This document shows positions 3,590 through 64,000 of a stretch of DNA of 64,000 nucleotides, one piece after another. The notes under the pieces are model-generated. The model made no database searches. It saw only the letters and a program-made list of their open reading frames with translations, and was not told the origin of the DNA. Both the position numbers and the translations under genes were made by a program. How positions within the stretch are numbered: the stretch's first letter is position 1; every line of letters starts with the position of its first letter. Source of the stretch: an uncultured virus (IMG/VR IMGVR_UViG_3300028805_000097) (taxonomy: Duplodnaviria > Heunggongvirae > Uroviricota > Caudoviricetes); the IMG/VR virus record IMGVR_UViG_3300028805_000097, positions 1-64,000 of that record. The stretch is one strand, 5' to 3'.

Positions 3590-3705
3590 ATTAAAAAGCA
3601 TATTATCCTATAAATATCTACAAAGATATATAAAAAAAAATGACAATTCCAAATTTTAAGACATAAAAATGGAGATAGATTCGAATCTACCTCCATTATT
3701 TTTTG

Positions 3706-7090: not shown

Positions 7091-7170
7091 TATATTATTG
7101 TTTATTAAAATATAAGATAATTCTATATAAATATAAATATTAAATTACACTTATTTAACGCTACTAAACA

Positions 7171-52104: not shown

Positions 52105-53427
52105 ATGAAAAAAGAAGAACTTATCAACAAAATCGGTGACGTGGTAATGAAAAACTCCAAGAAGGGTAAACTCACCACCACCAAATTCGTAGGCACATAC
52201 AACTATAAAAGTGGCTACGATACCTATTTCGCAGTGTCACTTGACATCAACATGGTGCTCATTGTCTACTCCTATTACCAGAATGATAGAGGAGAACATA
52301 TCGACACATGCACGTATAAACTGGTTGACCTCAAGGAAAATGAACTGAAAGAGGTCTACGACAACCTTAACACTGATGACAAGGATATTCTCCAATACGT
52401 CGGTTGGACTGAGACTGAGGACAAGAACCTGGAAATCATCAAACACCTTGGTATCTATAACCCCAAACCCAAGAAAGTCAAGAAGCTCTCAGTGGATGAT
52501 ATTCCAGAACTGGAGAACCCAGATGATGCATACGTCGTTGATAGAAATAACAATATCTCCATTCTCAAGTTCGCTGGTAAGTCACCTTCTGGCAAGAAGA
52601 TATTCGTCGTTGATAAAAATAATAATGGCGTGTATGAACAACCACTCTACGACAATGAGACGTATACATTCTGCGCAACAGGAAAGTTCCAGAAGAACAA
52701 GGGCATCTTCATGATTTCTGGTGGAAGAGAAACATCAGACGATAAGTATGTCTTCGCACCAGATAAGAAGACACTGATTAAACTCATCAACGAAGCAAAC
52801 GAAATCAAGGAATACTACCTTGTAAACGACAAAGACCTCTCCACATCAAAGACCGAAAGGGAAGGTGACTACAGAACCCCAGGAGACTGGACAGGATTCA
52901 CAACCAAGGAAGAGGCTGTTGAGCACTTCAACAAAGTTAAGACTAAGAAAATCAAGTCACTCACCAACCTCAAGGAAAGACTTGAGAACAGGATAGCAGA
53001 AGCCAAGGACTCAACAAACGGAGTGGAACTCCTTGAGTTCAATGATGTCCACATCAAATATGAGAATGCAAAGCCTGGACAGATGTACTACATCTACTGG
53101 AGCGATAAGTACTACGGACCACATAAGCTGACGAAACTGGAAAACGGTGTCGCATACTTCGATAACGGATATGCACTCGGCAAGTGGGAACGAGTCATCA
53201 CACCAGAGAACCTGGAGAAGTACGAGGCTTCAGAGAAGTTCAATAAAATCAAGGAACATATTGATGAATGCCTTGGAGAACTCAATTGGGTGGAGAAAGC
53301 ACTCAAGACAGCCAACTCAATCGTTCCATTCATTAAGTCAGACGATTATATCCCAGAGTGGATTGAACAGGATGCAAAGAAAATACTCAAGAAATCAATC
53401 CCAGTATTGAGTAAGGTAACAGCTTAA
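52105..53427 (+). CDS. Hypothetical protein
   Basis: 440-aa ORF followed by terminator at about 53435-53470. Confidence 0.7.
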   Translation: MKKEELINKIGDVVMKNSKKGKLTTTKFVGTYNYKSGYDTYFAVSLDINMVLIVYSYYQNDRGEHIDTCTYKLVDLKENELKEVYDNLNTDDKDILQYVGWTETEDKNLEIIKHLGIYNPKPKKVKKLSVDDIPELENPDDAYVVDRNNNISILKFAGKSPSGKKIFVVDKNNNGVYEQPLYDNETYTFCATGKFQKNKGIFMISGGRETSDDKYVFAPDKKTLIKLINEANEIKEYYLVNDKDLSTSKTEREGDYRTPGDWTGFTTKEEAVEHFNKVKTKKIKSLTNLKERLENRIAEAKDSTNGVELLEFNDVHIKYENAKPGQMYYIYWSDKYYGPHKLTKLENGVAYFDNGYALGKWERVITPENLEKYEASEKFNKIKEHIDECLGELNWVEKALKTANSIVPFIKSDDYIPEWIEQDAKKILKKSIPVLSKVTA

Positions 53428-53491
53428 TACAATAAAAGGAGACCCAATAACGAGTCTCCTTTCTTTTTTTTTCTTTCCTCTCATTCGGGGG

Positions 53492-54370
53492 TTAATTACC
53501 ATTAATTACATGATTTATCATCTTAGGAATAATGGCATTCATCTTGTTCTCATACCTCCTTATAAACTGCTTCAACCACTTTCTAAAACTGTTCCAGTTC
53601 TTAAACCTGTAATCAGAACACTGCCTAACTGCATATAAGGCACGCATCTGGTCAGCCTCATCAGTTAAATTAACAAGAAACAAAGCACAAGCAACAGACC
53701 TCTCATAACGAGAATACTCACCAGTGCTACGCAAGAACCTAATGGCATCATCGTAAGACCTTATACTACCAGCAGGCAAATCCTTTAACTTGGTGAACAT
53801 GGCAGCATTCCTGGCATTCCTCTCAAAACCAACACCATGATATATAACCCTGTTTACAGCCTTCTCAATAGAACTGTATGACTTGTTATCATCCCTCAAC
53901 ACACCATTCTTAATAACATTGTCAAAAGCCTTCATGTGACCAATCCTAGTCATTTCATCACCAAGACCATTCTCACTACTACCCCTCCTGCCAATGTCCT
54001 CAATCATATGAGTCAACTCATGAACCAACGTAGCATGAAAAGTATAACCTTCTTCATTTTCACCATTTAATACTCTATCTGGATTGATGAAAATAACACA
54101 TGGCTTATTAAGATAAATCGGAGGTATGGCATAAGAAGCACGAAGATTCATGGTGGTTGGACGCACCTCTAAGTAGCCAAAAGGAAGACCATTGAATGGA
54201 ATGGTAAACGAATCATAATCCCCATTACCCCACATTTGATTTACCTTACCAATTATAAAGTCAACAACATCATCAATATTATTGGGCAGACCATAATATT
54301 CCATGATTAACCTGCATTGACCCTCAGTAATGTATACTTTCCTATTATTTTCTCTAACATTTAGAATCAT
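53492..54370 (-). CDS. Zincin-like metallopeptidase, late gene
   Basis: TLVHELTHMIE plus downstream ERNAR; TATTTATA box at 54390-54397. Confidence 0.65.
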   Translation of the reverse strand: MILNVRENNRKVYITEGQCRLIMEYYGLPNNIDDVVDFIIGKVNQMWGNGDYDSFTIPFNGLPFGYLEVRPTTMNLRASYAIPPIYLNKPCVIFINPDRVLNGENEEGYTFHATLVHELTHMIEDIGRRGSSENGLGDEMTRIGHMKAFDNVIKNGVLRDDNKSYSSIEKAVNRVIYHGVGFERNARNAAMFTKLKDLPAGSIRSYDDAIRFLRSTGEYSRYERSVACALFLVNLTDEADQMRALYAVRQCSDYRFKNWNSFRKWLKQFIRRYENKMNAIIPKMINHVINGN

Positions 54371-54555
54371 ACCATTAATATATTATGTATATAAATAACA
54401 ACCCACTTAATAAAATAACCAAATTTTTTTTCCAGAATTTTTTTTCTGGGACTCCAATGAGAAAAAAAGAAATGGCCACCCATTCCTGGATTACACAAAA
54501 ATTTTTCCGAAATTTTATTTAGCAAACTGTCCCAGCCATATATGTGTCAAAATGT

Positions 54556-54599
54556 GGGGGCAGGGGGCGGGGGGACATAGGTGGGGGGTATCCCCTGCC
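54556..54599 (+). other. Four-G-tract element (potential G-quadruplex or competing hairpin) at the strand-skew switch
   Basis: G5-CA-G5-C-G6-ACATAGGT-G6; GGCAGGGG/CCCCTGCC inverted pair. Confidence 0.6.
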
Positions 54600-54611
54600 A
54601 CACCCTGCCGA

Positions 54612-54658
54612 TGTAAAGATTTTTTATCCCCTATATAGTATATATATTTCGTTGTAAA
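54612..54658 (+). repeat. Site A: TGTAAA-N11-CCCTATATAGTATAT-N9-TGTAAA
   Basis: Inverted counterpart at 58980-59026. Confidence 0.75.
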
Positions 54659-54876
54659 GAATTTTCGCATAACCTATTGTATATCAATTTAATACAAGCT
54701 AAAATTAGGCTTGTCAGAGCGTTTGTTTAGGGTGTACCCTTATAGTTATACCTTCGAAGGGTGAAATGCGCCTGACGGGCAAGGAAATGCCCTTAAATTT
54801 GATTTTTCGTGTATGGTTGTGGTTGGTTGTGCATACGTGCGTGTGTGTATTGCCAGGATTCCTGGCGAATAGGCAC

Positions 54877-54912
54877 AAAAAAACCTATCCGTTTCGGGAT
54901 AGGTCTTTCGTG
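54877..54912 (-). terminator. Repeated terminator, copy 1 of 3
   Basis: ACCTATCC..GGATAGGTCTTTCGTG; related copies at 56207 and 57274. Confidence 0.75.
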
Positions 54913-54933
54913 TAACTTGCAGCGTGCTATTGT

Positions 54934-55521
54934 TTAGTAGGCTGCGGCTACGGCTACTGCATAGGCAGGTTCGGGTTCGTAGTCGAAATCGGTGATAGCA
55001 ATTTCGTAGGTGGTGTGGTTGGCAGTGAGACGTGTCACGTTGCGAACACTGACGGTGCGATACTCTACGGGTGCGTAGGTCTTAGATGCCTTAGACGTGT
55101 AACGTTTCTCGGTCTGTTCGTCCTCCTCGGTGTAGGGCAGTCCGTTGTTGAACTTACCATCAGCGTAGTTAGTGCCGTTCATGTAGATGATGCAGGGGTT
55201 GTTAGTGGACTTGTAGCGCATCAGCAGATTAGGGATAAGGGTCTCAATGTTATCGTTGCCGCCTTTGGTGTAATCTTCGCCCAAAGCCTTAGACATGGCA
55301 CGTTCGTAGTCGATGCCGAATTGATAGTTAACATGATAGCGGTTGGTGGGATGAAAATCCAGAGTATCAATGTGAATTTTCTCGCTGCCGTCGGTAGGGT
55401 ACTTGTTAAGCTTAATGCCTACCTCCGCATACAGGGTTACAAACTGACCGCCCAACTTAGCGGCTTTCAAAATCTCTACCATCTCTTTGAGTGTGGTTAC
55501 TCTTACAACTTGGTTTGCCAT
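54934..55521 (-). CDS. Hypothetical early protein
   Basis: Own promoter (55582-55591) and terminator; strong codon bias. Confidence 0.75.
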   Translation of the reverse strand: MANQVVRVTTLKEMVEILKAAKLGGQFVTLYAEVGIKLNKYPTDGSEKIHIDTLDFHPTNRYHVNYQFGIDYERAMSKALGEDYTKGGNDNIETLIPNLLMRYKSTNNPCIIYMNGTNYADGKFNNGLPYTEEDEQTEKRYTSKASKTYAPVEYRTVSVRNVTRLTANHTTYEIAITDFDYEPEPAYAVAVAAAY

Positions 55522-55740
55522 AGAGCTAAAAAATTTTGTTTATTAATAGTGTTAATTGTGGTGTGAAATTCAATTTCACGCTGCAAAGTTACGACATTTC
55601 CAAATAATAACCAAAGAATTTAACGTTTTTTATGAAAAAAGTTTTCTTACACCCTGCAATTGGGTTTGCAGGTACAAAGATACGGAAACTGATGCAGGTG
55701 GATGCAGGTTTTTATACGTATAATTCAAAAGTAATAAATC

Positions 55741-55798
55741 TTTACAAACTAATGCCCTATATAGTATATCAGCTTAGTGATGGTAAAAAGATTTTACA
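55741..55798 (+). repeat. Site B: TTTACA-N8-CCCTATATAGTATAT-N23-TTTACA
   Basis: Inverted counterpart at 57098-57155. Confidence 0.75.
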
Positions 55799-56206
55799 TG
55801 GCTATATTTTCTTGCAGGGTCTTAATAACATATTAAGGGGTGCTGGGTTGTAGGTTGCAGGCTGGGAATGCTGGCAGGCTGGCTTATTTGCTGGGTTGTA
55901 GGTGTAATATAGTGTTATGGCTACGTTATGTATGCTTCGCATATATAACATAGACATAACGTATATTAAGGTGCTTGGTTGTGGGGTGCTGGGCATGACT
56001 ACCAGCATATATGTACAATTATTGCCTGCGTGTGGGAGCCTGCATAAATCGTCCCTGCTGGCTTGTTTTGGGTGTGGGTGGGTAACATATCCACAAAGGT
56101 GGTGTTATGCGCTTAGGAGCGATTTTAGGGGCATTTGTGAGCATCATGTGTATATGGTTCAAGATGTGCTGGCAGGATAGCTTGCTTGTACTTGTTTCAG
56201 TACAAT

Positions 56207-56246
56207 AAAAAAACCTACCTTGTTAGGGTAGGTCTTTCGTGCTGGG
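56207..56246 (-). terminator. Repeated terminator, copy 2 of 3
   Basis: ACCTACCT..AGGGTAGGTCTTTCGTGCTGGG. Confidence 0.75.
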
Positions 56247-56256
56247 TATTGCTGGC

Positions 56257-56979
56257 TTAGATATATTTAACCAGCAAAGCCATAACCTTTGGGCTTTCCT
56301 TTAGCTTGTTGATAGCTTTTTCCGAGATTTGGCGTACACGTTCCTCAGTAAGTCCGAGACGTTCCGCAATAATGAACTTAGATACTGGCATGGTCTCAAT
56401 GCCGAATAGGTTGCGCACGATGATTATTTCCCTTTGATTGAGTATTGCACGCATGGCACGCAGGATGTCAGTCAATAGGCTTGCATCTGACTCCTTATCG
56501 AAATGCTGACAATAAACGTCTGCAAGGGTTGTGTCTGAATCGTCGTAGGCTGGAGCATCAAGTGATGTGTGGGTGTTGGCAGATGTAGGGTGATAGTCAG
56601 CGACGATGCGTGATGTGTGAGTGATAGCCAACATGATATACTTGCGGATGCTGAATACCGCATGACTAATGAACTTAAAACCCTTAGTGGTGTCGAAGGT
56701 GTCAACGGCTGCAATCAGTCCGAGATTGCCCTCATTAACAAGGTCTAAGATAGTGAGTGAGCCACGACAATAATTGTACTGCTTGGCGATTGATACAACA
56801 AAGCGAAGGTTGCAATTAACCAGCATATCCTTAGCCTGCTTGTTTCCATCCTGCGCTGCAAGTGCAAGGTCAATTTCCTGCTCAATAGTCAGAATAGGAA
56901 AGTTAGCGATTGTTGCAAGGTAGGCGGCTAATTCGGGGGTGCGCTCTACCGACGTTTTTTCAATTCTAATTTGTCTCAT
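56257..56979 (-). CDS. Sigma70-family RNA polymerase sigma factor (compact, RpoD/RpoH-like)
   Basis: NLRFVVSIAKQY, DLVNEGNLGLI.AV..FD..KGFKFISHA, SLDAP, GLTEERVRQI. Confidence 0.92.
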   Translation of the reverse strand: MRQIRIEKTSVERTPELAAYLATIANFPILTIEQEIDLALAAQDGNKQAKDMLVNCNLRFVVSIAKQYNYCRGSLTILDLVNEGNLGLIAAVDTFDTTKGFKFISHAVFSIRKYIMLAITHTSRIVADYHPTSANTHTSLDAPAYDDSDTTLADVYCQHFDKESDASLLTDILRAMRAILNQREIIIVRNLFGIETMPVSKFIIAERLGLTEERVRQISEKAINKLKESPKVMALLVKYI

Positions 56980-57097
56980 AATAATGTTGTATTAAAAGTT
57001 ACTACCTTTGCGGAGTGCATCGGTTTTCGCTGGCAAAGGTAATAATAATATTTCATACTACCAAAGATTTTAACGTTTTTTATGAAAAAAGTGTGTT

Positions 57098-57155
57098 TGT
57101 AAAAAAATCGGAAAGCTACGGCTGGGATATACTATATAGGCAGATAGATTGTAAA
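57098..57155 (-). repeat. Site C (inverted copy of the site B architecture)
   Basis: TGTAAA-N23-ATATACTATATAGGc-N8-TGTAAA. Confidence 0.75.
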
Positions 57156-57273
57156 TAAAAAATCATGTGCAGGTTAAAAGTGGCTTGTGCTGGCTTGTTT
57201 TAGTGCTGGGGGTATAGTTATAGGGTATGCTGGGTAAAACGTCCTTAGAAGGGCAGGAAATAGGCTTAAACGT

Positions 57274-57313
57274 AAAAAGACCCACCTTATTAGGGTAGGT
57301 CTTTCGTGCTGGG
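57274..57313 (-). terminator. Repeated terminator, copy 3 of 3
   Basis: AAAGACCCACCT..AGGGTAGGTCTTTCGTGCTGGG. Confidence 0.75.
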
Positions 57314-57323
57314 ATGCTGGGTG

Positions 57324-58832
57324 TTACTTGTTGTCGAATTTAAGTTTGAATAGGTCTTTTTGTTCAACGTCAACAAAAACCAGTTCTTTCTTGGCTCTTG
57401 TATAGGCTACATATTGCAGGTTGCGCTCTTGTTGGTATTGCCAATCAAGCTGATTTTTCCATGTCAACGGCAACTTGTTAGGCAGCAGGATAACGACACG
57501 ATTACTTTCCAAACCCTTAGACTTGTGGGCGGTTGAAAGCGTAACGGCATTCACGATATTTTCGTCACTGAAAATCTTATTAATATAGTCTTTAACACTT
57601 TCCAACTTGGAAACATTTTCACCGATGGCGAAGATACAATTAACTCTATCCATATAGGCTATATAGCGACCTGTTTCCTCCGCTTCTTCGGCAGTGCAAT
57701 TTTCCTTCTTGCAGATGTCCTTAACCAGCTTTTGTTTCTCAATCTCTACGTAACTTTCGAAACCCTTCATAGTCTTAGCCTCCGACTTGTCGATAAGGTT
57801 AATCAAACCTTCTGCAATATCACGACCTTTAACGATAGCGGTTACACCAGCTTGTATCAGTTTGAAACACATAGAGACCAACGGAGCAGTGGTGCGGCAA
57901 AGCACCATATCATTAGGCTGGAATAGTCCTAAAGTGATTTCAGTCACACGATTAACGTCACCTTCGATAGCACCATTATGTGCTTGTATTGCAGGAACGA
58001 TTTGCTGGGCAAGTTCAATCATAGCACGACCACAACGATAGTTAACGCTAAGTGGCAATTCTTTGGTATTAGGCAGGGTTGCAATCTTATCGAAACTATT
58101 GCAGTCAGCACCAGCAAAGCCGTTAATAGCTTGGTTGCGGTCGCCAACGGCAACAAAACGTCCTCTTCTTGCAGCATATAGCATCAGTTCACGCTGGGCG
58201 CAGTTAAGGTCTTGGCATTCGTCAATAAACACGAACTTGTAGGAAGGGATATAACACTTATAGGTCAAGGGTAAAACCAGCATATCGGTAAAATCAATTT
58301 CGGGTGCTGGCACATTATCCAGCTGATAGCAATCTTTCAGCAGGGCATTAACGATGGTCATTTCGTTACCCATAGTTACTATCTGATGTTCGTCGCATAT
58401 AGCATTAATTGAACTCATGTCACCAGACTGAACCAAATTAACCCTGCAAAGGTTAAATAGCTTGTTAGTGTTATTCACGATGGCGACAAAGTTCTTGTCA
58501 TTCCTATCAACCTTTTCACGTATAAAATTAATATATTTACGATTATTAATCTTAACCTTAGAGTTAACCTTGCGGAGCACTGCAAAGCCAAAAGAATGCA
58601 GGGTGGAAACGTCGGCATAGTTACCGATTTTCATTTCAAGTTCTTGTACGATAGCTTTATTAAAAGCCAAAAACTTTACGTCAAACTTGTTAAGACGTAA
58701 CAACTTGCAGCATTCCACAATCGTAGTGGTCTTACCGCTACCAGCAACCGCATTAATAGCTAAATTGCCTTGTCCGTTTGCTACTTCATTGAAGATAGCC
58801 ATCTGAAACTTTGAAAAATTCATTTTGCTCAT
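57324..58832 (-). CDS. SF1 UvrD/Rep-like helicase (second paralogue)
   Basis: AVAGSGKTTT, IDECQD, VGDRNQAI, NYRC, STAHKSKGLE, YVAYTRAK. Confidence 0.92.
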   Translation of the reverse strand: MSKMNFSKFQMAIFNEVANGQGNLAINAVAGSGKTTTIVECCKLLRLNKFDVKFLAFNKAIVQELEMKIGNYADVSTLHSFGFAVLRKVNSKVKINNRKYINFIREKVDRNDKNFVAIVNNTNKLFNLCRVNLVQSGDMSSINAICDEHQIVTMGNEMTIVNALLKDCYQLDNVPAPEIDFTDMLVLPLTYKCYIPSYKFVFIDECQDLNCAQRELMLYAARRGRFVAVGDRNQAINGFAGADCNSFDKIATLPNTKELPLSVNYRCGRAMIELAQQIVPAIQAHNGAIEGDVNRVTEITLGLFQPNDMVLCRTTAPLVSMCFKLIQAGVTAIVKGRDIAEGLINLIDKSEAKTMKGFESYVEIEKQKLVKDICKKENCTAEEAEETGRYIAYMDRVNCIFAIGENVSKLESVKDYINKIFSDENIVNAVTLSTAHKSKGLESNRVVILLPNKLPLTWKNQLDWQYQQERNLQYVAYTRAKKELVFVDVEQKDLFKLKFDNK

Positions 58833-58979
58833 AATAAATTAAATTAATATTAAACGATTTCGGCTGCAAAGTTAGGCATTTTTTGGCAACCAGCCAAAGA
58901 ATTTATGAAAAATTAAGATTTGTTTCAAATCGTTTACATTTGGCTTGCTGGATGGATGCTGGCTGGGTTTTCCGATTTC

Positions 58980-59026
58980 TTTACAACTGCCAGCATATAC
59001 TATATAGGGCATGAAAAGTTTTTACA
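58980..59026 (-). repeat. Site D (inverted copy of the site A architecture)
   Basis: TTTACA-N9-ATATACTATATAGGG-N11-TTTACA. Confidence 0.75.
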
Positions 59027-59302
59027 AACCGCAGGCTGGCAGGATGCAGGCTGGGTGTGCTGGTGTACTACCCAGCTGGTACACTGGTTCGCCTATATAT
59101 AGATTAATATATATTATAGCGTGTGGGTGCGTAGCTGAGGTTATGCTGGCGACACATTATCCAGCACGTCACGATACCTTGTGCTGACTCTCGTGTGCTC
59201 GTGTTGCCAGCACACTTACCTGCCTTCGTGCTCGTGTTGTGTAGGGAGGCACGCCTGGGCTGCTCCTGGAGGGTGCACCACCCGCATACACATTACGTAT
59301 TA

Positions 59303-59318
59303 TGTTTCACGTGAAACA
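59303..59318. promoter_or_regulatory. parS: parS (chromosomal ParB/Spo0J-binding palindrome)
   Basis: Exact TGTTTCACGTGAAACA in noncoding DNA. Confidence 0.8.
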
Positions 59319-59347
59319 CGTGAGACAATTGAGACACGTACACACAT

Positions 59348-59493
59348 AAAGAAAAATCCTGCTTATCTTCTCAGACCAGCAGGATAAAACCTAAAACCAT
59401 GAAAAACATGAATAACTAAAAACCTTTTGAATATTATTATGAGCAAATCGAGTTGTATCTTCCTATATATGTTGTAATGTACTTTTTTAAGTC
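59348..59493 (-). ncRNA. Candidate sRNA, unit 2
   Basis: Starts GACTTAAAAAAGTACAT; ends in a hairpin containing GTCTGAGAAGATA plus U-tract. Confidence 0.5.
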
Positions 59494-59497
59494 CTTT

Positions 59498-59601
59498 ATA
59501 AAAACTTATCTATCTTCGCAGACTGATAAGTTATTGATTAACTAATCCAAAACAAAATATAATGTGTTATGCCTATGTACCTTTATGTACTTTTTTAAGT
59601 C
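59498..59601 (-). ncRNA. Candidate sRNA, unit 1
   Basis: Directly behind promoter TAACTTTGCA (59604-59613); same 17-nt 5' end; hairpin containing GTCTGCGAAGATA plus U-tract. Confidence 0.55.
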
Positions 59602-59715
59602 GGTGCAAAGTTACACATTTTCCATGTAATAACCAAATCCCTTAACATTTATTATATATTATGCAGGGTACACCTTATCGTATTTCTTCTCACATTTGGA
59701 GTTGTAGAAAGTAAC

Positions 59716-59943
59716 TTAACGTGCCATAAATCTCGGTGAACCACCACGATGAGTGTCGATGTAGTAAACATCTTCCTTTACATCAGTCTTTTCGTAGGTA
59801 ACTTTCTCACCCATTAGTTTGGCTGCCCTCTTGCATTCTTTTACCGCTTCCCAATCGCAGCCAGTAGTCGTGCGATAATTCCAATCACCTCGCCACCAAT
59901 CTACCGAATATATGTTGGTCTTCTTTACAATCTTTCTTGCCAT
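59716..59943 (-). CDS. Small hypothetical early protein
   Basis: Operon ORF. Confidence 0.6.
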   Translation of the reverse strand: MARKIVKKTNIYSVDWWRGDWNYRTTTGCDWEAVKECKRAAKLMGEKVTYEKTDVKEDVYYIDTHRGGSPRFMAR

Positions 59944-59947
59944 AGTC

Positions 59948-60163
59948 TTAACTCTCTGCTATCATGTCTAATAACTCTTGTAAACTTAACTCTTCGTAAG
60001 CCTTGTTACCTCTGGAGATAAACAATGGCTTATGGGTTTCGTGGAATCTCTCCAGAGCCATAAGTAATGACTTCTGGGAATCAGCATTAAACCACTGCGT
60101 TTCTCTATCCAGAATCTTACCGCTTTTTGTTTGCCCTAATCCTACTCTAATAACGTTTGCCAT
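59948..60163 (-). CDS. Small hypothetical early protein (start MANVIR)
   Basis: AT-rich leader before ATG at 60163. Confidence 0.55.
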   Translation of the reverse strand: MANVIRVGLGQTKSGKILDRETQWFNADSQKSLLMALERFHETHKPLFISRGNKAYEELSLQELLDMIAES

Positions 60164-60167
60164 AATT

Positions 60168-60518
60168 TTAATTATTTTCAATAAAAAATACATCCGTGTA
60201 ATTACCTCCCATAAACTTCGGGGTTAACTTCTGTCTGCCCTTAAAGTCCTCCATTGCTTCTGTCCTATCGTTGAAATAGGTAATGTTCTGATAACCTACC
60301 AAGCCATTGTTATAGCGGATGGATGCAGGGACACCAAATCTATTCTCATATTTTTCCCCACAATCCACTTTAACCTCTGTGTAGGCTACTGCATACTTGC
60401 AAGCATTAAAAGAGCCACTAAAGACCTTTTTCTTGTCCTCTCCGATAACGTAATAGTTGTTATCAACACTGAAAGAAATTCGCTTGCCCTCTGTTGTAAA
60501 TGATTGCCTTGCTCTCAT
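60168..60518 (-). CDS. Hypothetical early protein
   Basis: Operon ORF. Confidence 0.6.
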   Translation of the reverse strand: MRARQSFTTEGKRISFSVDNNYYVIGEDKKKVFSGSFNACKYAVAYTEVKVDCGEKYENRFGVPASIRYNNGLVGYQNITYFNDRTEAMEDFKGRQKLTPKFMGGNYTDVFFIENN

Positions 60519-60532
60519 AACCTTATATGTTT

Positions 60533-60634
60533 TTAATCGTTCTTACCACAAGCAATCCAGCCAATCGGTTTACCATCGTAGGCGTAGCCTATTGCCTTGT
60601 GCTTGATTCCGTTAATATACTTATACTTCTTCAT
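60533..60634 (-). CDS. 33-aa microprotein (not in ORF track)
   Basis: MKKYKYINGIKHKAIGYAYDGKPIGWIACGKND; ATGA-coupled to upstream ORF. Confidence 0.45.
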   Translation of the reverse strand: MKKYKYINGIKHKAIGYAYDGKPIGWIACGKND

Positions 60635-60936
60635 GACCTTATATCAATATTGTTAAACAATTTAGATGAATCCCACATATTTCTGTTCTCGTCCTCGCAC
60701 CACTTGTCGTATTGGTCGCAGGATAATCTTTCTTCAAGTTCCACCTTGAACACGCATACCTTTTCGCACACGTATTGGTAGAGTAACCTATTCGCTTTCT
60801 TTCTTGCGCTCTCGAAGTATTGGTAGCACTTCGGATAACGTCTAAAGAACCATGCTAAGACGTTACCTTCTTGCAGGGTGCATCCAACACCATCAATGAA
60901 CACCACTACGATGTATCTAACCTTGCTCTTATCCAT
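60631..60936 (-). CDS. Hypothetical early protein
   Basis: Promoter at 60961-60970. Confidence 0.6.
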   Translation of the reverse strand: MDKSKVRYIVVVFIDGVGCTLQEGNVLAWFFRRYPKCYQYFESARKKANRLLYQYVCEKVCVFKVELEERLSCDQYDKWCEDENRNMWDSSKLFNNIDIRS

Positions 60937-61068
60937 AACTCATGTTTGTTAAATTGATAGTGCAAAGTTACACATTATCCAGCATATATCCAAATTATTT
61001 AATATTATTTAATAAAAATGACTGACCCTATTCGCATAGAGCCAGCCACCAAATATGAAAAACGAAAA

Positions 61069-61758
61069 TCACATTCCTTCCCTAAACACCTTCTTGTATA
61101 TGGTAATAAGTTCCTCTTCGGTCTTGCCTTCCAAGTCATTGACGTGCTCCTTAGCATAGTTTTCAATAGCTTCCTTGCCATTGCAGTATTGTTTGTATCT
61201 CGGTGTCGTAGTGGCATAAGAGAAAGGCAGGTTACTAAGCCTTAACTCCTTATAGAAATAGTCACACACTGGGTTTACTACCTTGTAGTTCAGTAACTTT
61301 GCTATACGTTGTGCCTGCTCCCTATCTGCTTTCTCAATGTAGGTGTAATACACATACTCTGCAAGGATGCAGCGAATAACGTCTGCCACCTCGTCAGCAT
61401 CATATCTAAAGCTACCCAACCTGCAAGAACCACGATACCCATTGCAGGAATTAAATTCAGTATAGCTGACACTTGTAGATGTATCAGTTTTGTCACCCTG
61501 CACATAGAACATCAGCATTGGTCTATTACCATAGATATACAAGTGCTCGATGGTGCTATCCCAATTGTTTCCTGCCCTGCGGTCAGAATCAATCCAAAAA
61601 TCACCATCATCATTCTTGCACTCACTAATGATGCGAAGGATAGTTGCAGGTGTGGTTTTACGAATCTCCTGCGGTGATGCAGTCTTGATGTAGTGTAAGA
61701 TGTTCTCGGCAGGTGTGTTGCTGAAAACCATTTTGTTAATGTCGATAAACTTTTCCAT
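61069..61758 (-). CDS. Hypothetical early protein (start MEKFID)
   Basis: Promoter at 61786-61795 lies inside the longer predicted ORF. Confidence 0.65.
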   Translation of the reverse strand: MEKFIDINKMVFSNTPAENILHYIKTASPQEIRKTTPATILRIISECKNDDGDFWIDSDRRAGNNWDSTIEHLYIYGNRPMLMFYVQGDKTDTSTSVSYTEFNSCNGYRGSCRLGSFRYDADEVADVIRCILAEYVYYTYIEKADREQAQRIAKLLNYKVVNPVCDYFYKELRLSNLPFSYATTTPRYKQYCNGKEAIENYAKEHVNDLEGKTEEELITIYKKVFREGM

Positions 61759-61786
61759 AATGTTGTTATTTAATTGGTTTGATGCT

Positions 61787-61898
61787 GCAAAGTTACAAAA
61801 AAAGATTGGAATAACCACGTATTACTCCAATCTTTTATAGTTTATTAACAATCAGTGAGGTCTTATCTTGCTGATACTATGGCGTTGCAAGTTCTTAT
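61787..61898. repeat. 112-bp direct repeat, copy 1 (gene end, terminator and promoter)
   Basis: 7 mismatches to 63247-63358 by manual alignment. Confidence 0.9.
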
Positions 61899-62001
61899 TA
61901 AAGTCAGCCTTTACCTCTCTCATGCTCCTGCGTGGCATCATGCTGGGGTAGGGTGCAATCCTTCTCCCTGTAAGCCTGTCGTAAAACCTGTTATCGTTCA
62001 T
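61852..62001 (-). CDS. 49-aa basic microprotein (not in ORF track)
   Basis: MNDNRFYDRLTGRRIAPYPSMMPRRSMREVKADFNKNLQRHSISKIRPH. Confidence 0.5.
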   Translation of the reverse strand: MNDNRFYDRLTGRRIAPYPSMMPRRSMREVKADFNKNLQRHSISKIRPH

Positions 62002-62018
62002 ATATAGTGTATATATTA

Positions 62019-62519
62019 TTAGCGCACGACAATCACCTTCTCGATAATCTTAATGTCCTCATAGTAGTCATCGCTGGGGTCGTTGATATACCAGCGGTCA
62101 TCGTCCTCTTCAATCTCGAACTCTTCTTCCAACTCTTCTGGAGTGTAGTGGTCGTAGTGAGGGGAATCTTGCAGGATAGTGTTCTTTTCGTTCTGTAATA
62201 CCTTTCTTGCAGCCTCCAGAGTAGCGCATGGTACAGCGTTGATAATAATCTCTCCGTCCACGTTACTCTCTTGTAAGACGATGTACGTTTTCTGAAGGCA
62301 ATATGGATGACTTATAACATAGCTGCCCAGCAACAACCTTGCAACCTGTTCCCTGTCAGCTAATGGTATAATCGTGTAGTAATCACGTAACCAATCCATC
62401 AAATCTCCGTAAATGGTCTGGCGTTCACTATCACTCTCCAGACTGCTCTTGTCAAGAAGTTTTTCAACCAAGTTTGGGTACTTGGTCATAATCTCTTGGT
62501 AAATCTCTGATACTCCCAT
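62019..62519 (-). CDS. Hypothetical acidic early protein
   Basis: 166-aa ORF. Confidence 0.6.
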   Translation of the reverse strand: MGVSEIYQEIMTKYPNLVEKLLDKSSLESDSERQTIYGDLMDWLRDYYTIIPLADREQVARLLLGSYVISHPYCLQKTYIVLQESNVDGEIIINAVPCATLEAARKVLQNEKNTILQDSPHYDHYTPEELEEEFEIEEDDDRWYINDPSDDYYEDIKIIEKVIVVR

Positions 62520-62572
62520 AATGATTGCGTATTAAATAACCTACTTGTACTGATTTAAGTACATTTATTTGT

Positions 62573-62821
62573 TTAGTTGTTAATAATGTTTACAATCTGA
62601 TAGCCGTAACACCACTTATGATTATCAAGGCTGAAAGTGTATTCAACACCATGCCCGAAATCTCCAGCCCTATCATCGAAGTTTACTTCGTCGATGGGTT
62701 CACCATACTTTTCGCCACACTCGCATTCCTCAATGGCTACAACCACTGCTACATTGGTTTCTTTATCGTTGGGTAAGCGATATTCAACCTTCGTACCTTT
62801 TTTAATGACTTGTTTCTCCAT
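62573..62821 (-). CDS. Hypothetical early protein (start MEKQVI)
   Basis: Promoter at 62843-62852. Confidence 0.6.
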   Translation of the reverse strand: MEKQVIKKGTKVEYRLPNDKETNVAVVVAIEECECGEKYGEPIDEVNFDDRAGDFGHGVEYTFSLDNHKWCYGYQIVNIINN

Positions 62822-62966
62822 AACTAATAATTGTTTAGACGCTGCAAAGTTACACAAAAACCATGAAATAGCCAAATAATTAGTGTTAAAAAAAATTAAG
62901 GGTGCTGACCGAATTGTCAACACCCTGCATCAACTTATAAGATATGAGCAAAGAAAAGAAATCGTC

Positions 62967-63218
62967 TTATATCATCCGTAGAGTAACCTTTTCAATATCA
63001 CGATGTTTCAAACTAATCTCGAAACAGATGTTGCTATTAAGCCATTCCTCTGGGGTCTTGCAATCTGGCTCGTACATACTCCATAACTCGTAAGTGCCAA
63101 TCACCTCGCCATCATAGAGCATTTCAATCTTCTTGCCATAACCTGTCATTGCGGTCATGTTGTGGTACTTCGTTGCATAGGTCTTAACCTGCTTGCGTAA
63201 TTTTGCAATCTTTTCCAT
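62967..63218 (-). CDS. Hypothetical early protein
   Basis: Promoter at 63246-63255. Confidence 0.6.
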   Translation of the reverse strand: MEKIAKLRKQVKTYATKYHNMTAMTGYGKKIEMLYDGEVIGTYELWSMYEPDCKTPEEWLNSNICFEISLKHRDIEKVTLRMI

Positions 63219-63246
63219 ATAATTCGTTATTTAATTGTTTGATGGG

Positions 63247-63358
63247 GCAAAGTTACGGAAAAAGATTGGAATAACCACGTATTACTCCAATCTTTTATAG
63301 TTTATTAACAATTAATGTGGTCTTGTCTTGCTGATACTATGACGTTGCAAGTTCTTAT
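63247..63358. repeat. 112-bp direct repeat, copy 2
   Basis: Matches 61787-61898. Confidence 0.9.
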
Positions 63359-63968
63359 CACTATCCGTATCGTAGATAGCACGAAGACTCTCCAGTTCTT
63401 TTTCTTCGAACTTTTCCATTTCCAGTATGTAGTCACGCTCTTCCGAAGCACCTTGCCAGTCCAGTTCAGCCTCGAAGCGTAGTGCTGCGCTGCGTACAAG
63501 TTCTACAGCGGTGTCGTAGCCATAGACTCCCGACATATTGTATATCTGTTTGTATATATCGGCAGCAAGCAGGATAAAGGTTTCAGCCAGTTTGAAGGCG
63601 TTGTCTCCAGTTGATTTTACATACGCATTATTCTTTGGGTCGCAATCCAGTTTACCATATTTGAGACAAACGTCATACTGGTTAATCCCGTCATCAATGC
63701 CAGTGTAGTCACAGATGGCATTCTGTTTCCTCGTGCATTCCTTGATACACTCCATCTTAGAGTAAGTCATAAACAGACCGCTACCATCTGTAGCTATAGC
63801 CAGTCCATCGTAGAACTCCATTTCAATTTCACACTCTCCGTTTTCGTCGAACTCGTGGAGTTTGTTAAATGGGTGCTCCAGTTTTCTCAATGCCTTGCGG
63901 TTAGCAGGCGTATCGTACACTATAATGGTGTCGATGTAGTTGGGGATAATTTCAAATGTTCTTTCCAT
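63312..63968 (-). CDS. Hypothetical early protein
   Basis: Promoter at window edge (63993-64000). Confidence 0.65.
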   Translation of the reverse strand: MERTFEIIPNYIDTIIVYDTPANRKALRKLEHPFNKLHEFDENGECEIEMEFYDGLAIATDGSGLFMTYSKMECIKECTRKQNAICDYTGIDDGINQYDVCLKYGKLDCDPKNNAYVKSTGDNAFKLAETFILLAADIYKQIYNMSGVYGYDTAVELVRSAALRFEAELDWQGASEERDYILEMEKFEEKELESLRAIYDTDSDKNLQRHSISKTRPH

Positions 63969-64000
63969 AATACATATAATTTAAATTGACGCTGCAAAGT

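Follow-up and report, generated by a model that had tools for sequence, protein, structure and literature searches.

The proximal subsite of the UP element has the consensus AAAAAARNR next to TTGACA. Phased operators and switches are known from the looping gal OE/OI sites and from the phi29 p4 sites, which lie between early and late promoters that diverge; T4 oriF/oriG and ColE1-type origins are promoter-primed, and Hin/Gin and the invertible promoters of Bacteroides are invertible DNA switches. To our knowledge, the primary sigma factor of the Bacteroidetes does not use TTGACA/TATAAT promoters, and we know of nothing on the timing of gene expression in large rumen or gut Bacteroidetes phages. 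A precedent for a phage sigma factor that serves a few near-identical promoters is provided by phiEco32 and phage 7-11: gp36 of phiEco32 has six promoters (tAATGTAtA) and gp47 of phage 7-11, a sigma that keeps region 4, has eight bipartite promoters (GTAAtg-16-aCTA) (PMC8948821).

Here we describe conserved box–core–box sites in a 64,000-nt window (the whole stretch of DNA analyzed), which is part of a rumen jumbo-phage fragment, and place them in the context of these systems.

Results

The exact sequence CCTATATAGTATAT is found at 54630-54643(+), 55756-55769(+), 57127-57140(-) and 58995-59008(-) and nowhere else in the entire 76,969-bp record. A fifth match at 61999(+) carries two mismatches, and 0 of 100 dinucleotide shuffles gave five matches at ≤2 mismatches (mean 0.73). 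All four copies are intergenic, within a minus-strand run of early genes, among them those for a sigma-70-family factor and a UvrD-like helicase, and each is flanked by two directly repeated boxes, which read TTTACA on the strand listed and, for site A, TGTAAA on the plus strand:

54612..54658, minus strand: site A (class I), boxes 54612-54617 (11 nt to the core with its preceding C) and 54653-54658 (9 nt off); core ATATACTATATAGGG on the minus strand, which is CCTATATAGTATAT at 54630-54643 on the plus strand
55741..55798, plus strand: site B (class II), box 55741-55746, 9 nt, core 55756-55769, 23 nt, box 55793-55798
57098..57155, minus strand: site C (class II), box 57150-57155, 9 nt, core 57127-57140, 23 nt, box 57098-57103
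58933..59026, plus strand: site D (class I), boxes 58980-58985 and 59021-59026 flanking core 58995-59008, with the geometry of site A on the opposite strand

Site D also has a third TTTACA, at 58933-58938. Since TTTACA or TGTAAA occurs at just 80 of the 76,969 positions of the record, the shared box offsets are not a matter of chance. Spacer lengths are equal within the A/D and B/C pairs while spacer sequences diverge (identities of 7/11 and 2/9 for A versus D and of 4/8 and 6/23 for B versus C). A sequence-only reading of this DNA had described the four sites with these places, strands, and 11/9- and 8/23-nt spacings, had pointed to the retention of spacer length over spacer sequence, and had proposed selection on protein-binding geometry; the sequence confirms the first two, and the last is supported, since spacing is under selection and spacer sequence is not, which indicates protein binding. 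Its boxes are indeed direct repeats at the positions given but exceed six bases (an A-tract plus TT(T/G)ACA), and the exact spacing holds in this genome but relaxes among relatives, where the second spacer of class II sites runs from 23 to 26 nt.

Beyond this genome the module is conserved: we tabulated 24 distinct box–core–box sites from G000, four related viral records and 10 further metagenome contigs. At loci retrieved by pattern scan, the 100% conservation of box 1, the 11-mer and box 2 is partly by construction; 16 sites were found through the 11-mer alone (G000, G001, G003, G004, L345 and L294), and there the evidence for the boxes is independent. The universal part of the core is ATATA[G/C]TATAT, an odd palindrome, and box 1 reads TTTACA in 23 sites and TTGACA in one. 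Features outside the search pattern are also conserved, namely an A-tract preceding each box and CC(T) preceding the 11-mer. The boxes of G001 and G004 are themselves partly palindromic (GTAAA-N5-TTTAC).

Box-to-box distances are 41 (three sites), 43 (two), 52 (five), 53 (ten), 54 (two), 55 (one) and 75 bp (one), forming clusters at 41-43, 52-55 and 75 bp that correspond to about four, five and seven helical turns. Compensation is evident in two sites, in which an 11-nt first spacer is matched by a 25-nt second spacer that restores 53 bp; in one A-type site (L345), both spacers are longer by 11, at 23 and 35. An additional D' site, outside the 24-site table, has a box-to-box distance of ~44 bp.

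The 11-mer ATATAGTATAT occurs four times in G000, three times in G001 and twice in G003, in clustered sites only, and twice in G004, where one copy is boxed; reversed-pattern controls gave 0 matches. A search allowing three mismatches gained no intermediate family members and no weaker copies, so that sites are all-or-none. Genomes carry one to four sites (three in G001, one boxed in G004; B and C are missing from G003).

This variation in site number, together with presence/absence polymorphism and with the remnant of site B in G003, which was lost between its two boxes so that one box remains, resembling a target duplication or a direct-repeat deletion, could be accounted for by a small mobile or duplicating cassette, made up of ~52 bp and one repeated box and spreading through intergenic DNA with no phage function. 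We consider this very unlikely. Phages with helicases just 66-82% identical share the four positional types, along with type-specific spacer features such as GCTTAG following B-type cores and TCCGATTTC preceding the second boxes of C-type sites; terminal inverted repeats are lacking; in contigs of 134-154 kb, all sites fall within a single region of ~5-10 kb; and 0 of the 22 pattern matches in 185,579 species genomes has the features of the family.

The conserved direction of a site is that of its boxes. At equivalent genome positions box direction is kept and the 14-mer is flipped in place, also between close relatives, and sequence comparison indicates that the core functions in either orientation at an unchanged distance from box 1. 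Six of six helicase-upstream sites (two class I, four class II) point away from the helicase, and all five A-type sites with a known neighbor point to the homologue of the 292-aa gene (g292). In this genome polarities alternate: A reads leftward to gene 53492-54370, B rightward, facing the 3' end of the sigma gene with the promoter of gene 54934-55521 behind it, C leftward to the sigma gene, and D rightward, away from the helicase gene. Thus A and C, like S1 of G001, are pointed to genes, and B and D, like S2 and S3 of G001, against or away from all annotated genes. The features of this neighborhood are as follows:

53492..54370, minus strand: 292-aa protein with an HELTH (HExxH-type) motif, downstream of site A
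54553..54611, minus strand: G/C-rich block adjoining site A, with CCCCCCACCTATGTCCC invariant in four related phages
54934..55521, minus strand: conserved 195-aa protein of unknown function, between sites A and B
55579..55633, minus strand: host (Bacteroidetes)-type promoter of gene 54934-55521, with TAACTTTG as -7 box and an upstream TTTG
56206..56246, minus strand: terminator hairpin after the sigma gene, 93% identical to the 57273-57313 copy after the helicase gene
56257..56979, minus strand: sigma-70-family factor, 240 aa, regions 1.2, 2 and 4
57324..58832, minus strand: UvrD/Rep-like superfamily-1 helicase, 502 aa

The two terminator copies bound a segment of ~1.07 kb with the sigma gene and site C that is absent at that place in G003, and on this evidence the sigma gene and site C are an inserted cassette with duplicated terminators as its bounds. 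Sites B and C do not bound this insertion, which bears directly on the earlier proposal that the sites serve recombination, with a site-specific recombinase inverting the sigma-bearing B-C segment, the A-D segment, or both. The cores here do pair up as nested inverted repeats of 30-32 nt with 83-88% identity, which a repeat search recovered as an outer pair (54612-54643 with 58995-59026, 32 nt, 88%) and an inner pair that flanks the sigma gene (55741-55770 with 57126-57155, 30 nt, 83%). The inner pair arose because the sigma gene and site C were inserted as a cassette, and the nested arrangement is peculiar to this genome because box direction is conserved but the 14-mer can flip; the conserved polarity belongs to the boxes, not to the cores. 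Partner sites are absent in relatives (one site in G004, three in G001, no B or C in G003). Resolvase and tyrosine-recombinase domains (PF00239 and PF00589) were found in 0 of 5 related records, all of them fragments (10-52% complete), with profile controls positive in 12 and 14 of 14 genomes. A 9,502-nt contig from another sample (X4) is colinear over 54483-60164, the X3 contigs of a second sample are colinear too, and two DNA runs yielded no strand-changing joint, although contigs can miss rare forms. The proposal is not supported and, in our estimate, extremely improbable.

Genes of this region use Bacteroidetes-type TAnnTTTG promoters, sister copies of the 55579-55633 promoter being found at 57029-57083 (sigma) and 58862-58916 (helicase), and the host is evidently a Bacteroidetes-type organism with TTTG/TAnnTTTG promoters. 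RNA-library contigs reach 55561 (X8) and 55545 (X20), 23-39 nt short of the -7 box at 55584-55591; these data are assembled contigs of two libraries from which 5' ends and strand are not readable. Gene 53492-54370 is preceded by the late-type motif TATTTATA, which has 17 intergenic copies and is far commoner than the box–core–box module.

The modules are linked to phages that carry a sigma factor. A homologue of the sigma gene is present in every site-bearing viral record (G000-G004 and G006), and the complete, distant phage G005 has neither sites nor homologue. Among eight sigma loci, four have a site within ~230 nt upstream, a fifth has one a gene further upstream, and three have no nearby site. 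The protein encoded at 56257-56979 scores above the cut-off for Pfam Sigma70_r1_2, r2 and r4, and its region 2 is nearest to SigA/RpoS-type sigmas; the region-4 helix reads TEERVRQI versus TRERIRQI in SigA, and the region-2.4 positions that read the -10 element in SigA are altered.

We tentatively favor the view that the sites are phased transcription-control modules, probably promoters for a phage sigma holoenzyme with accessory boxes. The module consists of an A-tract plus TT(T/G)ACA box, 9 bp, a 14-bp AT-rich core, and an identical second box placed about four, five or seven turns from the first. Most likely, host RNA polymerase with the phage sigma would initiate here, the first box and its A-tract acting as an UP element plus -35 hexamer and the core, 17-18 bp downstream, providing the element that melts or serves as -10; a second protein, for which alpha subunits, sigma region 4 and a phage regulator are candidates, may contact the near-palindromic core and the second box on the same helix face. 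The sequences show the anatomy of the module, its conservation, its phasing, its constant polarity and its link with phages that carry a sigma factor; from these we infer a start of transcription at the module and the identity of the bound protein. Predicted sense transcripts would run from C to the sigma gene, with possible autoregulation, and from A to the metalloprotease-like gene, and B and D are predicted to give G-rich non-coding or antisense transcripts.

Read in the direction of the boxes, 23 of 24 sites have TATA at 17-18 bp from TT(T/G)ACA, the hexamer there being GTATAT or TATATN in class II and TATAGG, TATATG or TATATA in class I, and the TTGACA variant of the box is a canonical -35. 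This candidate -10 has the A at -11, and the usual T at -7 is missing; TAGTAT fits as a -10 solely when the spacer is set at 15 bp. A -10 partner is lacking for the second box, and the A-type site of L345, with 23 bp from box 1 to the 11-mer, has no -35-like hexamer at promoter spacing, which fits phasing and not a simple -35/-10 pair. Since TATTTATA is likelier to be the general late promoter, the sigma could serve that motif instead of the modules.

In a different reading, the sites are operators or looping sites only: a phage regulator would bind one DNA face, with a dimer on the near-palindromic core and further subunits on the two boxes, and would repress or activate nearby host-type early promoters with no start in the module. 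The spacing by integral turns, including the +11/+11 variant, the odd palindrome in either orientation at a fixed distance from box 1, the partly palindromic boxes of G001 and G004, and the all-or-none character of the sites are consistent with such a regulator, as is their distance from host-type -7 boxes, 62-75 bp for C-type sites (measured from box 2) and 82-105 bp for the divergent D-type sites; site C itself lies upstream of the sigma promoter, with 62 nt from the start of box 2 to the -7 box. These distances vary, however, and family scans of the neighboring genes gave no candidate DNA-binding regulator, the 195-aa and 292-aa flanking proteins being without a DNA-binding family match. 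Furthermore, the box closely resembles an UP element plus -35, TTGACA included, which an unrelated regulator need not yield. We regard this alternative as rather unlikely.

Improbable, in our estimate, is a role in replication initiation, either as iteron-like boxes round an AT unwinding core or as a promoter-primed origin in the style of T4 oriF/oriG, at which a transcript would form an R-loop in G-rich DNA just downstream. The direct, helically phased repeats do flank a readily melted 14-bp AT core, and the sites cluster beside the helicase gene. GCTGG/GCAGG is 12-14-fold enriched on the plus strand of the four intergenic regions, the DNA beyond box 2 at A, B and D is rich in G-runs or GCWGG, and a conserved G-run block adjoins every A-type site, the CCCCCCACCTATGTCCC block having four or more G-runs on the plus strand. 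Site C, however, lacks a G-rich tract and is followed at once by a gene promoter, the AT core is short, and there are two boxes per site only; family scans recognized no replication initiator gene near the sites, single sites are dispensable, as the loss of B in G003 indicates, and GC skew in this region tracks gene orientation. The looping-anchor and initiator-site functions proposed earlier are both possible, at these different strengths.

Discussion

The reading of the sites as sigma-dependent transcription modules can be extended to one that we consider improbable, in which they would be promoters reserved for an orthogonal transcription channel. Here the phage sigma would restore to a Bacteroidetes RNA polymerase the reading of a canonical TTGACA-type -35 that the host sigma lacks and would fire from one to four master sites gated by the phased boxes, and the G-rich non-coding transcripts of B and D would form R-loops that prime replication or silence converging early genes.

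What the rumen giant phage offers is a sharply defined, conserved cis-element of measurable geometry that adjoins a phage sigma gene and lies directly upstream of it in half of the visible cases. If the sigma reads the modules, the two together would make up a compact orthogonal sigma/promoter system for a phylum in which the polymerase does not respond to standard bacterial promoters, the pair might be useful in engineering Bacteroides or Prevotella, and the modules would be a clean case of promoter accessory sites that obey helical phasing. If a regulator or initiator binds instead, the element would mark the early-to-middle switch or the origins of the phage.

Among known systems, Hin/Gin and the invertible promoters of Bacteroides share with this locus inverted repeats round a segment with regulatory or coding DNA, but here no recombinase was found in five fragment records, no alternative orientation was seen, and the arrangement is not conserved. 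T4 oriF/oriG and ColE1-type origins likewise have a promoter-like element followed by G-rich DNA beside replication genes, a tract that site C lacks. As in gal OE/OI and the phi29 p4 system, paired sites lie integral turns apart round a promoter-like core, with A-tracts, between divergent or tandem transcription units; the module boxes are direct rather than inverted repeats, and no regulator is known here.

The resemblance to a sigma-70 promoter with an UP element lies in the A-tract directly 5' of TT(T/G)ACA and in the AT-rich, TATA-containing element that follows at 17-18 bp in 23 of 24 sites, and pattern scans also catch ordinary Firmicute-type TTTACA-N17-TATAAT promoters by chance. Unlike such promoters, the modules are found with a Bacteroidetes-type host, lack the T at -7, and have an invariant 14-bp core where a normal spacer varies freely. 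Finally, the modules differ from the promoters of phiEco32 and phage 7-11 in an invertible core, in that half of the sites face no gene, and in that recognition by the sigma is here a prediction; the second, downstream copy of the upstream box and the whole-turn spacing are likewise particular to the modules. This phage resembles both in using host-sigma promoters at the start while carrying a sigma of its own, and in having a tiny set of near-identical AT-rich elements that are bipartite where the sigma keeps region 4.

Genomic setting of the four sites

Sites A to D, four copies of an element composed of a 14-mer core flanked by TTTACA/TGTAAA boxes, belong to a genuine and conserved family of cis-elements that had not been described before and is carried by uncultured rumen jumbo phages. 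The record is a large-phage fragment (CheckV 26%) that encodes a protease, a portal, a large terminase, thymidylate synthase, a Lon-like protease and RNA-repair genes, and sequencing runs with this phage derive from the gut or rumen of sheep, cattle and goats. All genes from 53.5 kb onward lie on the minus strand, and most of these have an individual promoter of the Bacteroidetes type, TAnnTTTG with TTTG further upstream, which occurs in 42 intergenic copies across the record; copies of one shared kind of terminator hairpin follow three genes of the A–D region. The sites occupy four consecutive intergenic regions, one site in each, in the following left-to-right order.

53492-54370 (-), 292-aa HExxH protein
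54630 (+), core of site A
54934-55521 (-), 195-aa protein
55756 (+), core of site B
56257-56979 (-), sigma-70-family factor (Pfam regions 1.2, 2 and 4)
57127 (-), core of site C
57324-58832 (-), UvrD-like helicase
58995 (-), core of site D

The 292-aa protein, encoded downstream of site A, contains a HELTH (HExxH-type) motif that suggests a zinc metalloprotease; it has no family match in Pfam, PHROGs or NCBIfam, and the 195-aa protein has no named relatives in the protein atlas. Strains in other samples vary: one contig carries ~1 kb of other sequence in place of the 195-aa gene region (54883-55728), a 756-nt insertion at 59715 (59715/59716) is found in two samples, and a 152-nt direct repeat of 87% identity (61747-61898 and 63207-63358) extends across gene ends and intergenic DNA.

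Anatomy of the box-core-box element

The 14-mer CCTATATAGTATAT is found exactly four times in the window and has no further exact copy in the whole 76,969-bp record; with up to 2 mismatches allowed, 0 of 100 shuffles gave as many matches as the window. Sites A and D are arranged as TGTAAA-11-(C)core-9-TGTAAA, and sites B and C as TTTACA-8-(C/G)core-23-TTTACA. These are the four exact cores, the boxes and the 11/9- and 8/23-nt spacings reported in the sequence-only reading, and its statement that spacers diverge while their lengths are kept holds as well: A and D share 7/11 and 2/9 spacer positions, and B and C share 4/8 and 6/23, with equal lengths in each pair. In a 101-nt piece over site B from a second sample, at least 11 of 15 substitutions fall inside the 23-nt spacer (55770-55792), another instance of free spacers next to fixed elements.

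We analyzed the anatomy in 24 distinct sites and derived the consensus from 17 sites of class II, one of two classes of core orientation read in box direction. Invariant in the core is ATATA[G/C]TATAT, an odd palindrome that CC(T) usually precedes. The two boxes are direct repeats, as first described, but are longer than the hexamers then recognized, each consisting of an A-tract followed by TT(T/G)ACA (consensus about AAAAATC-TTTACA); the TTGACA variant is found in both boxes of one site and in box 2 alone of another. A-tracts and CC were absent from every search pattern. Class II sites have the layout box-9-CCTATATAGTATAT-23 to 26-box, and class I sites box-9-ATATACTATATAGG-~12-box, with a first spacer of 10 or 11 in two sites; the two classes have the same 14-mer, inverted in place. 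Box start-to-start distances in the 24 sites are 41 (n = 3), 43 (2), 52 (5), 53 (10), 54 (2), 55 (1) and 75 (1), and cluster at ~4, 5 and 7 helical turns with none within 44-51. Loci from the pattern scans are guaranteed by search design to have box 1, the 11-mer ATATAGTATAT and box 2 within 39-55 bp; the 16 sites found via the 11-mer alone have distances of 41-44 (5), 52-54 (10) and 75 (1). In two sites an 11-nt first spacer is paired with a 25-nt second spacer, which returns the distance to 53, and in the A-type site of L345, a metagenome contig locus, both spacers are longer by 11 (23 and 35).

Distribution among related phages

Helicase- and pattern-based searches retrieved four related viral records, G001 (154 kb; helicase 68% and sigma 52% identical), G003 (31 kb), G004 (134 kb) and G006 (36 kb), together with ten further metagenome contigs; all six related records are fragments (10-52%). 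In the related genomes the 11-mer is confined to a small cluster near the helicase, with four copies in this phage, three within 3.2 kb of the 154-kb G001 contig, two in G003, and one boxed plus one unboxed at a start codon in G004. Reversed-pattern controls gave 0 matches, the complete distant phage G005 has no copy, and allowing three mismatches gained no weaker members. Among 185,579 bacterial and archaeal species genomes, we obtained 22 pattern matches, 0 of which have element-family features. An exact 14-mer scan of viral contigs gave at least 115 loci, and besides copies of this phage only the locus L094 is boxed among the matches listed; a looser scan (at least 118 loci) revealed no relatives among the matches listed. 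Blastn of 54500-59200 against GenBank phages gave no match, and Rfam gave for 53000-64000 only four sub-threshold matches to unrelated families. Two core-like sequences lie to the right of site D: CCTATATATAG in an AT-rich stretch (59091-59125) with the palindromic GTGTACTACCCAGCTGGTACAC before it, conserved between G000 (this phage) and G003, and an intergenic degenerate core CATATATAGTGTAT (61999-62012) that lacks a box pair and is kept in G003, there with TTAACA 12 nt upstream.

Box polarity, the sigma cassette and the question of inversion

The nested inverted pairs of cores described in the sequence-only reading are present in this genome but are not kept in relatives, the three cores of G001 reading -, +, +; a Ter/Tus-like fork trap was rejected on the same lack of conserved core orientation in G001. 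Box direction is the feature conserved at equivalent positions. All six helicase-upstream sites (two class I, four class II) point away from the helicase, and A-type sites with a known neighbor point to the 292-aa gene homologue (5/5). B-type boxes point away from the 195-aa gene promoter, in the direction of the preceding gene's 3′ end; C-type boxes point into a gene promoter; and box directions alternate in the window (leftward at A and C, rightward at B and D).

The sigma gene resides in a promoter-gene-terminator cassette bounded by a duplicated terminator (56206-56246 and 57273-57313, 93% identical). In G003, 750 nt past the helicase terminator align at 80% to 55514-56259, the non-coding stretch with site B; the 1.07 kb in this genome that comprises site C, the sigma gene with its promoter and the second terminator copy is therefore an insertion. 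The cassette is absent at the equivalent place in G003, whose sigma homologue is placed 3 kb beyond the helicase, and the sigma homologues of G001, G003 and G004 are located elsewhere with no site nearby. Site B is missing in G003, where a single box remains at its place, so individual sites are dispensable; the difference is a deletion, or insertion, between the two direct-repeat boxes, and the B/C inverted pair is a by-product of cassette shuffling.

The inverted arrangement had led to a proposal of paired recombination or inversion sites, which fares poorly. Serine and tyrosine recombinase domains were found in 0/5 related records, all fragments, with positive controls; one contig of 9.5 kb assembled from another sample runs colinear with 54483-60164, a second sample's contigs are likewise colinear, and no strand-changing joint is listed among the assembled contigs of the two samples. 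We regard inversion at the sites as extremely improbable. Two joints in the DNA sample X3 (54883 to 57068 with a 20-nt side, and 54586 to 59302) were discarded as spurious ~20-nt matches to repeats.

Candidate functions of the element

The upstream half of the module resembles a canonical promoter, with an A-tract like a proximal UP subsite followed by TT(T/G)ACA, and TATA lies 17-18 bp beyond the box in box direction in 23/24 sites. The region-4 recognition helix of the phage sigma reads TEERVRQI versus TRERIRQI in primary sigmas and is conserved in 5/6 homologues; its region-2.4 positions differ from those of primary sigmas. Canonical promoters are not known to be used by the Bacteroidetes host sigma. 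In 4/8 sigma loci a module lies no more than ~230 nt upstream of sigma, and in a fifth it lies one gene further up. There is precedent for phage sigmas dedicated to just six to eight promoters of near-identical sequence (PMC8948821). This promoter likeness, the region-4 helix, the Bacteroidetes-type promoters of neighboring genes, the proximity to sigma genes and the phage-sigma precedent lead us to favor the modules as putative promoters for a phage-sigma holoenzyme. Site C would then mediate autoregulation of sigma, transcription from site A would lead into the metalloprotease-like gene, and G-rich non-coding or antisense RNAs would come from B and D.

A generic promoter scan gave 18 sigma-70-like sites versus a shuffle mean of 19 and flagged TTGTAA-17-TATAGT at D, in core orientation. 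In the RNA libraries X8 and X20, assembled contigs leave 54081-54761 and 55670-55896 uncovered, such gaps proving nothing, and one low-depth contig (57109-57329) crosses site C, its ends likewise proving nothing. Multisubunit polymerase domains were detected in 0/5 related records (controls 14/14), and PF00940 (T7-like polymerase) had no match, as was also true of its controls.

Several features run counter to a plain -35/-10 promoter: no -10 element accompanies box 2, T is missing from its usual place at -7, the core can be flipped and stays invariant at positions where promoters tend to differ, and the L345 site keeps the phasing but loses promoter spacing. These fit a second protein that would recognize both boxes and the near-palindromic core on a single face of the helix, and such a core- and box-reading protein is what pure operator or looping sites would bind, a possible reading that we nevertheless hold to be unlikely. 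The same features keep alive an initiator or R-loop origin, which seems to us distinctly improbable. For the promoter, operator or looping and origin readings alike, we infer the mechanistic steps. Two elaborations of the promoter were rejected: a second promoter using box 2 as its -35, for which no -10-like hexamer lies 16-19 bp downstream at any of A-D, and bidirectional -10 symmetry, in which TATAGT and TATACT would place starts ~16 bp apart rather than at the favored 18 bp (PMC10268837).

Other non-coding features of the region

The motif TATTTATA is 13-fold denser in intergenic than in coding DNA (17/27 copies intergenic in the whole record; examples at 3609, 4990, 7126-7132, 9114, 17583, 27204, 28496, 41788 and 54390). 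It precedes the structural genes and lies shortly upstream of the protease, portal, terminase and other genes without a -35-like partner, so it probably serves as the late promoter in general. TATTTATAGTATAAT is the reading of three copies, which have TATAGTATA in common with the core.

GCTGG and GCAGG are 12-14-fold enriched on the + strand of the four site-bearing intergenic regions (54371-54933, 55522-56256, 56980-57323 and 58833-59715), with the + strand exceeding the - strand (25 versus 8 and 15 versus 8, respectively), and similar clusters flank sites in relatives. Beside site A, 54553-54611 is a G-run block on + that is C-rich on -; CCCCCCACCTATGTCCC beside A-type sites is invariant in G000, G001, G003 and G004, and a fifth A-type site (L345) has a C-rich block of diverged sequence. 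Between this block and the 292-aa gene come additional conserved non-coding stretches and a hairpin resembling a terminator (54468-54487). A conserved-hairpin RNA downstream of A was rejected, as the fold (z -0.58) is no better than shuffles and G001 and G004 lack its G-rich arm.

The perfect 16-bp palindrome TGTTTCACGTGAAACA at 59303-59318 is the sole exact copy in the window and is found exactly in G003 and, just past the D-type site, in L345. In a literature listing, thirteen papers contain this word along with parS; ParB_N was found in 0/5 related fragments, and the palindrome may be a host-type centromere site carried by the phage. Finally, a small RNA may be encoded at 59345-59655 (-), where ~220-250 nt lacking any minus-strand ORF ≥20 aa are enclosed by a promoter of the host type (59601-59655) and a terminator-like hairpin (~59383-59345). 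Contigs 59259-59633 and 59472-59707 of the RNA libraries cover this candidate, which is also conserved in G003.

Comparison with known systems

A literature search for regulatory elements of these phages found no paper. Phage transcription-control sites are as a kind already known; the geometry of this element, with direct boxes, whole-turn spacing and an invertible invariant core, is unusual.
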